From: an uncultured bacterium
GTDB lineage: Bacteria > Patescibacteriota > Minisyncoccia > Moranbacterales > GWC2-37-73
Reading direction: 5' to 3'
Length of the DNA stretch: 64,000 nt
NCBI GenBank assembly: GCA_903885965.1
Contig: CAISKQ010000060.1
Location: forward strand, 21,220-85,219
Positions within the stretch are counted from its first letter, which is position 1. Each line of letters begins with the position of its first letter. This document shows, in pieces, positions 3,630-8,640 of this stretch. The notes under the pieces were generated by a model, which worked only from the letters and a program-made list of their open reading frames with translations, was not told the origin of the DNA and did no database searches. The translations under genes and the position numbers were made by a program.

Positions 3630-4988
3630 CTACTTTCTCCATATATGTTCTAACTTTATAATTCCATATTGATTTTTTTCATTCGATATTATTTTAAAAA
3701 CATATTCTCTATTTTTATAATCAAAATGAGTTGTTTCTTTATATTTTTCGTAAAGCGAAACCGATAGTTGATAAGATCCGCTGAATAATTTAATACTCAG
3801 CATCACAAAATCAACAAATCCATCTCCGTAAATATTGTTAATATCATATCTGGATGTTTCAGTGTTTGGCCCTGAAATATGAATGCCGTCTTGAGTATGA
3901 ATTGCGACACCAAAAACAGGGTTTTCTATTTTCTTTTTTGCATTGTAATGTATCCTCGCCACAATATCATCTCCTGACTCAAAAACATTTTTTTCTTTTC
4001 CATCTTTATCCAAAAATTCCACTTTTGTGATTTCTGCAATTTTATTTTTTCTTTCCTCCTCCTGTGTTGCTTTTTCTTCTTCAATTCTTCTTTTTTCCTC
4101 CTCCAAGTCCTTTCCTTTCAATTTTTTCATTTCTTTTTGAACTCGCATATCTTCTTGTTTCTGCTCCTTTTCTATTCTCCTTTCTTCATCTGACATGTTC
4201 TGATAAATATATTCGTTTCCGACTTCCTCAGGATCGCCAATTTTCACAATTTTGCCACTTCGAAGCAACATCGCCCGGTCGCAATAGCGCTGCACCACAG
4301 CGATGTCATGTGTGACAATAACAACAGTTCGCCCCATCTCCCGATATTTATTAAACTCCTCCAAACATTTTGATTGAAAATTTGAGTCACCCACTGCCAA
4401 GACTTCATCCATCAGCAAAATTTCGCGATTAGCGTGAATAGAAACCGAAAATGCAAGACGCACTTGCATTCCAGAGGAATAATTCTTGAGTTTTTGATCA
4501 ATAAATCTTTCCAATTCTGAAAAAGCCACAATAGCATCAAATTTTTTGTCGATTTCTTTTTTGGTCAGGCCCAGAACCGTGGCGTTGAGATACACATTGT
4601 CTCGACCAGAAAGTTCAGGATTAAAACCAATTCCCAATTCTAAAAATGGAGAAATTCGCCCTTTGATTTCAATCTTCTTCTCGGCTTTCCGAAGGTTCAA
4701 CCTTCGGTGTTCCGAAGGTTCAACCTTCGGATGCGCATCAGCGTCTGGTTGATAAATCCCAGCCAAAATTTTCAGTAATGTCGATTTGCCGCTTCCATTT
4801 CGCCCAATGATCCCAAAAAATTCCCCTTTTTTCACCTCAAAAGAAACGTCGTCAAGGGCTTTGAATTCTTCGAAGCCTCCACTTTTAAAAACACTCGTAA
4901 CCGCTCCTCTGAGAGAGGAGATTTTTTCATGCGGAATCCTAAATGTTTTTGAAACATTCTTTACGCTAATTGCAATATTATCTTCCAT
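3630..4988 (-). CDS. Polysaccharide/teichoic-acid export ABC transporter ATP-binding protein (Wzt/TagH-like) with a coiled-coil linker and a C-terminal Wzt_C-like carbohydrate-binding domain.
   Basis: Walker [10 protein letters not shown], signature [11 protein letters not shown], Walker [14 protein letters not shown]-loop VVIVTHD. 452 aa against about 250 aa for a bare ATPase. K/E-rich linker then a beta-rich tail. Confidence 0.8.
   Translation of the reverse strand: MEDNIAISVKNVSKTFRIPHEKISSLRGAVTSVFKSGGFEEFKALDDVSFEVKKGEFFGIIGRNGSGKSTLLKILAGIYQPDADAHPKVEPSEHRRLNLRKAEKKIEIKGRISPFLELGIGFNPELSGRDNVYLNATVLGLTKKEIDKKFDAIVAFSELERFIDQKLKNYSSGMQVRLAFSVSIHANREILLMDEVLAVGDSNFQSKCLEEFNKYREMGRTVVIVTHDIAVVQRYCDRAMLLRSGKIVKIGDPEEVGNEYIYQNMSDEERRIEKEQKQEDMRVQKEMKKLKGKDLEEEKRRIEEEKATQEEERKNKIAEITKVEFLDKDGKEKNVFESGDDIVARIHYNAKKKIENPVFGVAIHTQDGIHISGPNTETSRYDINNIYGDGFVDFVMLSIKLFSGSYQLSVSLYEKYKETTHFDYKNREYVFKIISNEKNQYGIIKLEHIWRK
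4688..4729. repeat. Two tandem copies of a 19-bp palindrome CCGAAGGTTCAACCTTCGG, separated by TGTT, embedded in frame in the Wzt ATPase CDS.
   Basis: Direct reading. Encodes an extra segment (...[24 protein letters not shown]...) between Walker A and the Q-loop region. A single copy occurs in the decayed paralog at 6603..6621. Confidence 0.85.
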
Positions 4989-5051
4989 CCTTCTTTATAT
5001 TTTATATAGTATCTTATATGGAATTAACTTGATCCATATTAGTTTACCTCC

Positions 5052-5083
5052 GAGCTAAGCTCCTGAGTACAGGAGCTTAGCTC
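5052..5083. repeat. Perfect 14-bp-stem hairpin GAGCTAAGCTCCTG-AGTA-CAGGAGCTTAGCTC upstream of the wzt start.
   Basis: Direct reading. No flanking T-run, so it is not a canonical terminator. Confidence 0.7.
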
Positions 5084-5152
5084 CATCCCAATATACTACT
5101 AATTTAGTTAAGTTGGTATCTTATATGGTACTTCACATCTATCCTCATCCAT

Positions 5153-5190
5153 CATTCCAAAACTCGACGACCGCATAGTTTTGGTATCAT
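5153..5190 (+). promoter_or_regulatory. Copy 1 of a 40-bp palindromic element (CCAAAAC-N14-GTTTTGG followed by TATCAT).
   Basis: Sequence tccaaaactcgacgaccgcatagttttggtatcat. Family of 4 copies. Confidence 0.5.
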
Positions 5191-5420: not shown

Positions 5421-5462
5421 ATTATTCCAAAACACGACGACCGCATAGTTTTGGCATAATGG
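5421..5462 (+). promoter_or_regulatory. Copy 2 of the palindromic element with a -10-like CATAAT.
   Basis: attattccaaaacacgacgaccgcatagttttggcataatgg. Confidence 0.5.
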
Positions 5463-5523: not shown

Positions 5524-5566
5524 GATTATTCCAAAACACGACGACCGCATATTTTTGGTATAATGG
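5524..5566 (+). promoter_or_regulatory. Copy 3 of the palindromic element with an extended -10-like TGGTATAAT.
   Basis: gattattccaaaacacgacgaccgcatatttttggtataatgg. Confidence 0.5.
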
Positions 5567-5609: not shown

Positions 5610-6164
5610 TTAATACAATTTGAATTTTAGTTTGAGCTCTTCCCCATTAGAGATGTTTACAACCTCGCCATAGCGAACAAGATTTCGAAGTTGAAAATAT
5701 TCCGTGATGAAATTAATTTCATCCAAACAAGGAAAAGGATGGATAAAAACAGATTTTTGAATTTCTTTAAAGCCAAGCTCTTTCAGTTTTTCCCGAAGAA
5801 CATTCCGCTCCGATCTTCTTTTCTCAGGAATATCAAACATCACAAGCCGCCATCGATTATCCCATTTCAAGGGTTTAGGAATCTTAATAGCATCTATTTT
5901 AAATTCAAGTGTTTTTAGCTTTCCTTTTTCCGTTAGCACAATTTTAGTAGTTCCATTTTCTTGTTCAAGATAATCCACCAAGCGTTCTTGCTTAAATTCT
6001 TTTACAGCCCGGTATAGATATTGCTTATTTATCTCGTGCCAATCGCGCTTGAGCGTTTTGAAAACATTCTTTTGCGACCTTGGATTATTTGCAAGTCCAA
6101 GAGCCACTCCTCCTGCAAGAAGAAGTAGTATCTTTCTTTTAATTGGGCTCCTTATTTCTTTCAC
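5610..6164 (-). CDS. PaaX-like transcriptional regulator (N-terminal winged-helix-like region plus a PaaX_C-like domain).
   Basis: DNRWRLVMFDIPEKRRSERNVLREKLKELGFKEIQKSVFIHP matches the PaaX C-terminal domain pattern (W..V.FDIPE..R..R..LR..L..LGF..LQ.SV%). Confidence 0.5.
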   Translation of the reverse strand: MKEIRSPIKRKILLLLAGGVALGLANNPRSQKNVFKTLKRDWHEINKQYLYRAVKEFKQERLVDYLEQENGTTKIVLTEKGKLKTLEFKIDAIKIPKPLKWDNRWRLVMFDIPEKRRSERNVLREKLKELGFKEIQKSVFIHPFPCLDEINFITEYFQLRNLVRYGEVVNISNGEELKLKFKLY

Positions 6165-6216: not shown

Positions 6217-6258
6217 CATTATACCAAAACAAGACGACCGCATAGTTTTGGTATAATG
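6217..6258. promoter_or_regulatory. Copy 4 of the palindromic element, here with TATAAT on both strands. It sits about 50 nt upstream of the PaaX-like gene start.
   Basis: cattataccaaaacaagacgaccgcatagttttggtataatg. On the minus strand TGGTATAAT precedes the ATG at 6164 by about 45 nt. Confidence 0.55.
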
Positions 6259-6296
6259 CTTGCTAAATATTTTCTGCAATCTTTGCTTTGAAAATT

Positions 6297-6882
6297 ACTA
6301 TCTCCCACTGCCAAAACCTCATCCATGAGCAGAATCTCGCGGTTGGCGTGAATCGAAACCGAAAACGCGAGACGAACTTGCATGCCGGAAGAATAATTCT
6401 TGAGTTTTTAATCAATGAACCTTTCTAATTCTGAAAAAGCCACAATGGAATCAAACTTTTCATCAATCTCTTTTTTCGTCAGCCCCAAAACCGTCGCATT
6501 AAGATAGACATTATCGCGCCCAGAAAGTTCCGGATTAAAACCAATCCCCAATTCCAAAAACGGGGAAATTCGCCCGTTGATCTCAATCTTTTTCTCGGCT
6601 TTCCGAAGGTTCAACCTTCGGGGATACGTCTTCGTCAGCCTGATAAATCCCCGCCAAAATTTTCAGCAAAGTGCTTTTTCCGCTTCCATTTCTCCCAATG
6701 ATCCCAAAAAATTCTCCTTTTTTCACCTCAAAAGAAACGTCATCAAGAGCTTTAAATTCTTCGTAACCTTTGTTTCGCTTGAACACGCTCACTGCTGCAC
6801 CGCGAAGAGAACTCACCTTTTCGTGAGGAATGCGGAAAGTCTTGGAGACGTGAGAGACTTTAATTGCGATATTATCTTCCAT
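6297..6882 (-). pseudogene. Decayed duplicate of the 5' about 600 bp of the wzt/tagH ATPase gene, frameshifted at the palindrome.
   Basis: ORF 6583..6882 ([22 protein letters not shown]...[19 protein letters not shown]) and ORF 6408..6614 in another frame (RISPFLELGIGFNPELSGRDNVYLNATVLG) are colinear with wzt residues 1-200. Nucleotide identity to 4380..4988 is visible. Homology stops near 6297. Confidence 0.75.
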
Positions 6883-8282: not shown

Positions 8283-8433
8283 TTGAGTTTCTGATCAATG
8301 AAACGCTCAAGTTCCGAAAAAACCACGATACCCCTAAGAGAACTCACCTTTTCGTGAGCTTGTCTGCCGCCGAGGCAGGGATTTTGAAAGTCTTTAAGAC
8401 GTTTTTAACTGAAATAGCGATATCTTCATCCAT
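8283..8433 (-). pseudogene. Second, internally deleted remnant of the wzt 5' end.
   Basis: Minus strand encodes MDEDIAISVKNVLKTFKIP (wzt N-terminus). 8283..8330 matches wzt 4485..4535 and the remainder matches 6805..6882. Confidence 0.6.
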
Positions 8434-8640
8434 TTCTCTATTATAAAGGATTTTATTGATAAATTCAACTCTTTTCCACATTTCATTTTTCTCCACCCAA
8501 GGCGGACAGGCGCAAAAAGAAACCTGGAGGAAACCTGCATGTCGGCAGATAGGGAAAACTCTCGCACCGATTATCACATTACGAGTTATCTTACTGATAA
8601 TTTCAATATTTTAGACATTTTATTTTTAAATGGAAATGAA

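Follow-up and report, generated by a model that had tools for sequence, protein, structure and literature searches.

The window analyzed here (the whole stretch of DNA under study, 64,000 nucleotides of contig CAISKQ010000060.1, positions 21,220 to 85,219 of the forward strand) derives from an uncultured bacterium of the Moranbacterales, within the Candidate Phyla Radiation (CPR, Patescibacteria), and its wzt gene contains, as part of an in-frame insert, two copies of a 19-nucleotide (nt) palindrome separated by four nucleotides. This doublet is probably an element of the kind known as REPINs (paired repetitive extragenic palindromic, or REP, sequences) or MITEs (miniature inverted-repeat transposable elements), belonging to a CPR hairpin family that has a Y1 transposase of the RayT type as its cognate, and tolerated within a loop of the Wzt protein. 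A first-pass annotation of this DNA had suggested, as one of two possibilities, a MITE-like insertion tolerated in a loop, and our results agree with that suggestion: most homologues and the solved Wzt structure lack the insert, disorder is predicted for it, the hairpin is dispersed in the CPR, and it is associated with Y1 transposase genes. For the wzt locus itself, a passenger that the gene tolerates is most likely, rather than a regulatory switch.

A paired palindrome within a loop of Wzt

The 19-mer CCGAAGGTTCAACCTTCGG occurs on the plus strand at 4689-4707 and at 4712-4730, with the spacer TGTT at 4708-4711; the first-pass annotation had described this sequence as it is present but had placed it at 4688-4729, one base off from 4689-4730. 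A third copy at 6603-6621 was the sole additional one across the window. The 11-nt core AGGTTSAACCT was not found in the window beyond the three 19-mer copies, and 100 shuffles yielded no matches to CCGAAGGTTCAACCTTCGG. The features of the host gene, the element and the decayed second copy of the gene are as follows.

3630-4988, minus strand: intact wzt, 452 amino acids (aa), which hosts the element (Pfam ABC_tran, 8e-22, and Wzt_C, 1e-26)
4683-4742, minus strand: insert of ~60 nt (20 aa), approximately aa 83-102, boundaries uncertain by a few nt
4688-4731: whole doublet, a putative REPIN-like unit; near-perfect palindrome with 20-nt arms that are 95% complementary and a 4-nt loop
4712-4730: 19-nt palindrome that comes first on the coding strand, read as PKVEPS-E
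4708-4711: 4-nt spacer, the loop of the long hairpin; TGTT on the plus strand, AACA on the coding strand
4689-4707: 19-nt palindrome that comes second on the coding strand, in the other frame, read as RRLNLR
6270-6882 (approximately), minus strand: decayed remnant of a second wzt allele with its first ~200 codons (5' part), 87% identical at the nt level
6603-6621: lone 19-nt palindrome within this fragment, exactly one 23-nt unit fewer than in the intact gene

On the coding strand, the order is CAT CCGAAGGTTGAACCTTCGG AACA CCGAAGGTTGAACCTTCGG AAAGCC, and the two copies are translated in different frames. When the doublet was folded as single-stranded DNA, the copies paired with each other in one hairpin of 19-20 bp, closed by a 4-nt loop and interrupted by one mismatch, with a folding free energy of -22.9 kcal/mol (z -9.5) for the coding strand and -21.8 kcal/mol (z -7.6) for the plus strand. 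The stable fold bears out the earlier description of the sequence as hairpin-forming, except that a single hairpin is formed jointly; two independent small hairpins were rejected because folding prefers the single long one. The centre base is identical in both copies, making them a direct rather than an inverted pair and leaving one mismatch in the stem. An intrinsic terminator within wzt was ruled out, as neither strand has a T-run after the hairpin. Among known RNA families, Rfam returned only a pair of tRNAs at other places in the window and a miRNA-like match below threshold, and a resemblance to the tRNA T-arm (GGTTCAA) was dropped because the loop is too short.

The wzt product consists of an ABC ATPase domain and a Wzt C-terminal carbohydrate-binding domain (Pfam), and had 8000 homologues, those named coming from Candidatus Moranbacteria (CPR/Patescibacteria). 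The element is located past the Walker A motif (GRNGSGKST) and ahead of the conserved SPFLELGIGF motif. In a comparison of the 120 best homologues, the insert was absent from about 100, which show YQxDKGKVxIxG at this position, and DNA alignment with insert-free alleles resolved the insert into the 42-nt doublet, a variable 5' flank of 12 nt before it and AAAGCC after it. Query residues 84-105 were unmatched in the solved Wzt of Aquifex aeolicus (6an5/6oih), where the gap follows GVTEPDK, which ends the Walker-A helix, and precedes the strand VERSGKV. AlphaFold2, run with 48 sequences, gave a predicted local distance difference test score (pLDDT) below 50 for aa 85-103, between the helix at 68-75 and the strand at 106-108, and the insert is accordingly predicted by the model to be a disordered loop. 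These alignments placed the segment at a loop gap and showed that it is not ordinary conserved Wzt sequence. The extra segment had earlier been estimated at about 14 residues, which is the length of the palindromes plus the spacer, but the insert relative to homologues is larger, at about 20 aa or 60 nt.

The wzt ortholog P0003 (70% aa identity) carries a diverged form of the element, CCCAAGGCTAAGCCTTCGG AGCA CCGAAGGCTTAGCCTTGGG, which is a perfect palindrome with 19-bp arms. It differs from the doublet of the window by 8 substitutions in 42 nt, all confined to 4 positions that pair within the long hairpin (G-C to C-G, T-A to C-G, A-T to G-C, and a G.G mismatch to A-T), so that three pairs are compensatory and one mismatch is repaired, while the doublet peptide is changed from PKVEPSEHRRLNLRK to PKAKPSEHRRLSLGK. 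Because the peptide changes while base pairing is retained, this comparison argues against protein-level selection on the insert, and the pattern would fit either a constraint acting on the hairpin or some process by which the arms stay complementary. It bears on the proposal that the insert is a lineage-specific functional loop of Wzt, selected as protein (for example, charged and partner-binding) and only incidentally palindromic. Such a loop would be consistent with the in-frame position of the insert in three alleles (the window, P0003 and locus L025), with its many charged residues and with the conserved 3' flank AEKK. However, in addition to the amino acid changes, the low AlphaFold2 confidence, the lack of the insert in most close homologues and the identical DNA in unrelated genes and intergenic regions make selection as protein highly improbable.

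Dispersal of the hairpin and its association with Y1 transposase genes

We scanned the GTDB species representatives (one genome per species, 596 Gb) for exact matches to the 19-mer and found 40 loci, relative to a chance expectation of ~4 by simple arithmetic. At least 22 of these are CPR loci, although CPR genomes make up a small share of the bases in this collection: 10 Moraniibacteriota, 4 Nomurabacteria (contigs of one metagenome-assembled genome, or MAG), 2 Taylorbacteria, 3 Parcubacteria, 2 Saccharibacteria and a Kiruna bin, whose locus carries a wzt ortholog. With 40 loci in other genomes, the element is not the one-off that the first-pass annotation had allowed for. A chance palindrome followed by tandem duplication, unconnected with mobile DNA, would account for the confinement of the motif to the wzt copies within the window, but is extremely improbable in view of these 40 loci, their strong enrichment in CPR, the doublets in six other genes and the copies that flank Y1 genes. 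The six genes with in-frame doublets are listed here.

L006: pheT
L023: tilS
L024: metG
L003: miaB-like methylthiotransferase gene
L034: pth
L041: heavy-metal ATPase gene, in the linker following the HMA domain

These doublets have the format 19-mer, 3-4 nt, 19-mer, and lie inside long open reading frames (ORFs). The pth doublet aligned to a gap in the solved Pth structures; comparison with homologues established an insert for wzt and pth, and pheT, metG, tilS, the miaB-like gene and the HMA-ATPase gene were compared for frame only. Among CPR-like loci, 7 of 7 doublet sites were in ORFs, whereas 18 of 23 single-copy sites were intergenic (Fisher p ~4e-4), mostly no more than 50 nt from an ORF and often with an extended stem. 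In the doublets of L025, L006, L023, L003 and L041, the two copies have opposite centre bases and form a perfect palindrome, and the long hairpin was predicted for the doublets of the window, L025 and L044. Viral contigs contained one single 19-mer copy, in an apparent coding sequence of a 4.4-kb contig. The hairpin was also observed in three MAGs labelled 'uncultured Bdellovibrionales' (L003, L034, L035 and L037), including the in-frame doublets in pth and the miaB-like gene, which could reflect horizontal spread, a common family of elements, or contigs that were wrongly binned or labelled.

The same hairpin accompanies genes for Y1 transposases. At L013 (Moraniibacteriota), the identical 19-mer accompanies a 224-aa gene with a match to Pfam Y1_Tnp (IS200-like, E 5.5e-7) in three places: ~25 nt upstream of the start codon, across the stop codon, and in frame internally (SINDFRRFNLRKPLVDIVAYCFNPNHYHF). 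The ortholog of this gene at L055 (77% identity) has the three hairpins in the same layout, in slightly variant form, and, because both loci adjoin ligA, this shared chromosomal position points to vertical inheritance of the Y1 gene. Hairpins were found at both gene ends in L013 (the exact 19-mer), L055, L053, L056, both L047 genes and L007. The hairpins of the additional Y1 genes, and the positions of the internal hairpins, are as follows.

L007 Y1 gene: 19-mer upstream, GGAGGTTSAACCTCC doublet inside, GGAGGTTGAACCTCC downstream (two related end variants)
L053 and L056 Y1 genes: CCTAAGGTTTAACCTTAGG-type hairpins at both ends, doublet inside; the L056 3' copy has a GGCTTAGCC centre
L047 first Y1 gene: GTAGGGGTGAAACCCCTAC at both ends and inside
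L047 second Y1 gene: CTTAGGACCGTCCTAAG at both ends
L038 Y1 gene: GCCAAGGGACTGTCCCTTGGC upstream and inside
L054 Y1 gene: 50-nt perfect-palindrome doublet (24-bp stem), in frame inside; no flanking copies
Internal hairpins: L013 7174-7192; L007 ~2190-2230; L047 1933-1955; L053 ~397-437; L054 2397-2446; L055 3192-3216; L038 ~1610-1630; also L056

The internal cognate hairpin or doublet mostly occupied one fixed site, immediately ahead of the HUH motif (elsewhere in L038), and a hairpin-derived peptide, such as DFRRLNLRK, DFLKLGFRK, PKVKPSEFLRLNLRS or PKVQPLASQRLNLRK, preceded this motif in nearly all of the top 120 Y1 homologues. To our knowledge, an in-frame cognate hairpin has not been described inside genes for REP-associated tyrosine transposases (RAYTs) or inside IS200 genes. 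Pfam PF01797 (Y1_Tnp) was matched in four of the genes, all in other genomes, with 29-34 bits against a cutoff of 23, and the motifs NPNHYHF and YLxxYVNxN were visible in the proteins. The family comprised 3917 proteins at E <= 1e-5, its named members being from Moranbacteria and Parcubacteria, and JGI gives some homologues the name 'REP element-mobilizing transposase RayT'; a sequence search of the PDB found no relative. In L013 and L007, exact 19-mer copies were detected only at the transposase locus (incomplete MAGs, exact matches). A Y1 gene with the GGCTAAGCC variant (P0191) was considered as a co-resident of the wzt allele of that variant (P0003), but the two come from different samples. 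RAYT/REP and IS200/IS605 enzymes act on folded single-stranded DNA, and by analogy we infer that the Y1 enzyme mobilises these hairpins.

It is also possible, though unlikely, that the hairpin has been retained as a cis-acting signal for regulation, either as an mRNA hairpin that affects stability or translation or as a site to which the Y1 protein binds. The stability of the hairpin is very high, its structure is preserved by compensatory evolution, and single copies are often located immediately past ORF ends, as are REPs and terminators; furthermore, nearly all members of the Y1 family have a cognate hairpin in frame at one site of their own gene, which hints at autoregulation. However, the hairpin is not followed by a U/T run on either strand and matches no Rfam family, most wzt alleles lack it, and the upkeep of the palindrome could be explained by the element's own biology or by intrastrand template switching.

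Several observations weigh against reading the doublet as a REPIN- or MITE-like element with a RayT-type cognate. The two copies in the window have an identical centre base, and therefore may have arisen through a local 23-nt tandem duplication or conversion after insertion. The spread of the wzt insert through homologous recombination between alleles would look identical to mobilisation. No Y1 transposase gene was found by tblastn in the window, a search confined to these 64 kb of the genome. The sole NCBIfam match of the Y1 proteins, NF047646 (REP_Tyr_transpos, the RayT equivalog), scored 25-33 bits against a cutoff of 80. Unlike the REPs of REPIN-RAYT systems, CCGAAGGTTSAACCTTCGG does not have a GTAG/CGTC tag at the foot of the hairpin; this tag is present in a different hairpin family in L047 (GTAGGGGTGAAACCCCTAC). 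The per-genome copy number appears low, with the exact 19-mer in at most 4 contigs per MAG (4 contigs in Nomurabacteria Ike-200m-9 and 2 contigs in each of three others, all incomplete MAGs), and the JGI metagenome collection contained only one exact doublet (L041).

Copy number, reading frame and turnover at the wzt locus

The decayed 5' fragment upstream of the intact gene contains one palindrome instead of two. Alignment with intact wzt confirmed the earlier observation that this paralog is frameshifted exactly at the element, and identified three lesions in all: the loss of one 23-nt unit with the frameshift there, a CAA-to-TAA nonsense mutation, and truncation near codon 200. Its closest relative, at L025 2826-3572, retains both copies in frame; the two-unit state is therefore ancestral, and one unit was lost from the fragment. 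L025 has three wzt 5' copies on a single contig, with the doublet in one and no insert in two.

We propose the following order of events. Two REP-like hairpins that pair into one would make up an element of a family specific to the CPR/Patescibacteria, with an IS200-like Y1 (HUH) transposase of the RayT type as its cognate. A copy would have inserted in frame into an ancestral wzt allele, at the solvent-exposed turn that links the Walker-A helix to the beta-strand after it, where it would be translated as a tolerated disordered loop of ~20 residues that we infer to be neutral for Wzt function. In the functional gene, both units would be held, since the loss or gain of 23 nt ruins the frame; in the pseudogenised fragment, this constraint would be gone, and one unit could have been lost via slippage or hairpin-promoted deletion between the 19-nt repeats. 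On the simplest view, which turns the logic of the first-pass annotation around, long palindromes would be prone to collapse, and a 23-nt collapse within a functional gene would be a frameshift and would be purged, so that doublets would persist in ORFs; in the pseudogene, the collapse would have run its course. The restriction of doublets to ORFs, with intergenic copies being single, fits this view of collapse and purging.

The other possibility raised by the first-pass annotation was a phase-variation switch, in which slippage between the 23-nt units would reversibly silence and restore wzt and, through it, polysaccharide export. The arithmetic on which it was based is correct: one 23-bp unit more or less shifts the frame, as it has in the one-unit fragment. 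Additionally, the 19-mers are perfect direct repeats here, and the loss of a unit did occur in that paralogous copy. However, only two units are present, and the two-copy form was found in 7 of 7 public contigs containing the gene (consensus assemblies, in which rare variants are invisible). The truncated products predicted for one-unit and three-unit alleles were absent from a collection of 15 billion proteins, in which the control, a 99-aa ORF of the fragment, was represented by 8 contigs. Furthermore, the two-unit state has been kept at 70% identity with diverged, co-varying arms, which frequent slippage would be expected to homogenise; the one-unit copy is doubly disabled besides, by its nonsense codon and its truncation; and the same doublet is found in the essential genes metG, pheT, pth and tilS, in which an off state would be lethal. 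A switch therefore appears very unlikely.

The site occupied by the doublet in wzt has also received a different and unrelated insert, found in about 17 of the 120 homologues (for example, APKKGKVHPVKSGEAGPAKREFHGVK). The DNA of this second insert has an outer stem, ACCCC(A)GTGAAAT / ATTTCACGGGGT, that closes two small hairpins in a three-way junction. Both inner stems co-vary, one as CGGGC/GCCCG, CGAGC/GCTCG and CCGGC/GCTGG, and the other as CCGCC/GGCGG and CCCGC/GCGGG. It is present as a tandem pair in P0029, and a related copy is intergenic in L002. When the second insert was compared with the hairpins flanking the Y1 genes of the same contig (L047), no convincing match was found.

Second-insert carriers: P0002, P0004, P0007, P0023, P0029, P0037, P0046, P0091 and others
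Second-insert DNA: L047 10265-10317; L050 4066-4115; L051 933-983; L049 2284-2383

The relatedness of the wzt alleles was assessed by UPGMA (unweighted pair group method with arithmetic mean) ordering and by nearest-neighbour identities. Insert-bearing proteins were interspersed among insert-free ones in the UPGMA ordering. P0037, with the insert, was 96% identical to P0074, which has no insert and a footprint (NHGV) of its loss, and P0023, with the insert, was 92% identical to the insert-free P0041; the footprints in P0026 and P0027 are KRKFNGV and KRKFSGV, respectively. Because inserts differ between wzt proteins that are 92-96% identical, gains and losses at this site are, to judge from these sequences, recent and repeated.

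A broader proposal is that these observations represent an undescribed REP/RAYT-like system of the CPR, in which hairpins would be placed routinely in frame and a Y1 enzyme would insert and excise units in coding DNA, thereby remodelling or toggling polysaccharide-export genes. Its sites would be housekeeping genes, the hot spot in wzt and the fixed site within the transposase gene, and the 23-nt loss from the fragment, together with the wzt gains and losses at 92-96% identity, would be catalysed by the enzyme. We regard this proposal as improbable.

Several additional features were observed around wzt. Remnants of its 5' end accumulate upstream of the intact gene, at 6270-6882 and ~8344-8577 in the window, at 341-430, 958-1446 and 2826-3572 in L025, and at 1769-2305 in L044. 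Unrelated genes (PaaX/Cas2-like, AAA_14/DUF4143 ATPase and SLFN_AlbA_2) lie between the remnants, and the pattern was present in at least 3 genomes, with breaks at roughly codons 180-240. This suggests that replacement or integration has taken place repeatedly, with the conserved 5' half of wzt as the crossover or attachment site. A 28-nt repeat, CCAAAACTATGCGGTCGTCGTGTTTTGG, with inverted ends (CCAAAAC/GTTTTGG), has four copies on the minus strand (5157-5184, 5427-5454, 5531-5558 and 6224-6251) that flank and follow the PaaX/Cas2-like gene (5610-6164), one of them exactly at the truncation point of the wzt fragment; it was not found in the other loci that we fetched. Upstream of wzt, at 5052-5083, is a perfect hairpin with 14-bp arms, GAGCTAAGCTCCTG-agta-CAGGAGCTTAGCTC, bracketed by 13-nt direct repeats (GTATCTTATATGG, ~5008-5020 and ~5118-5130) that are ~110 nt apart. 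This region, found only in contigs of the window's genome, may be a small insertion with target duplication or a duplicated promoter segment. Although wzm and wzt are expected to be adjacent, wzm (~12,900-13,700; L042 982-1758) and wzt (3630-4988) are ~8 kb apart here, separated by a gene for a 1176-aa lipase-domain surface protein, small ORFs, an AAA_14/DUF4143 ATPase gene, the wzt fragment and the PaaX-like gene. A similar interruption between wzm and wzt, which includes a Y1 transposase gene, is present in L047.

Comparison with known systems

REP/REPIN-RAYT systems, of which those of Proteobacteria are the best known, are considered to be extragenic, and in-frame palindromic elements are best known from Rickettsia. 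The CPR family would combine RAYT-type hairpins with in-frame insertion, in essential tRNA-related genes, in a polysaccharide exporter and in the transposase gene itself. If this is true, it offers a handle on how ultra-compact genomes that are almost without intergenic space accommodate selfish repeats, and a natural test bed for target choice by single-strand hairpin transposases. It would also explain odd low-complexity insertions in CPR proteins, which is relevant to annotation and structure prediction. In the limited literature that we searched, which cannot establish novelty, no paper dealt with RAYT or REPIN together with Patescibacteria, and work on the Candidate Phyla Radiation yielded no mention of such repeats. 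A 2018 survey of Y1 HUH proteins does not mention these CPR lineages (PMC6006769).

The CPR family resembles REP/REPIN-RAYT systems (Nunvar 2010; Bertels & Rainey 2011, PMC3116915; Ton-Hoang 2012) in having a short (~20 nt) dispersed palindromic repeat, doublets that form one long hairpin by pairing of their two copies, a Y1 HUH transposase gene that has these hairpins on its flanks and is apparently inherited vertically at a fixed locus (L013 and L055, beside ligA), and a cognate hairpin variant for every transposase variant. Unlike in those systems, the CPR doublets are intragenic and in frame (in the window and in all 7 others), with single copies mostly intergenic, and the transposase gene carries its cognate hairpin in frame inside itself. 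Additional differences are the CPR/Patescibacteria host, Y1 protein scores well below the NCBIfam RayT cutoff, and apparently low copy numbers per genome.

Similarities to IS200/IS605 elements and their MITE derivatives (palindrome-associated transposable elements, PATEs) include a Y1 gene bracketed by subterminal hairpins and Y1_Tnp matches above the gathering score, and the doublet resembles two end hairpins with the interior deleted. However, the left and right hairpins have the same sequence here, in contrast to the distinct left end (LE) and right end (RE) of IS200/IS605, and the conserved position of the L013 and L055 genes suggests a resident rather than a hopping gene. Simple-sequence contingency loci share with the doublet a unit length that is not a multiple of three, so that copy number sets the frame, but they have many short units rather than two long 23-nt units; we found no population polymorphism for the doublet, and, unlike contingency loci, it occurs in essential genes.

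Rickettsia palindromic elements (RPEs) are 100-150 bp long, and we know of no transposase associated with them. As in the case of RPEs (Ogata et al. 2000), the CPR repeats are palindromic, lie in frame in the housekeeping genes of a small-genome bacterium, and would be translated as tolerated extra surface segments. The two families have no sequence relationship, and the CPR element differs from RPEs in that it is a double hairpin of 42 nt with a link to a Y1 transposase family.

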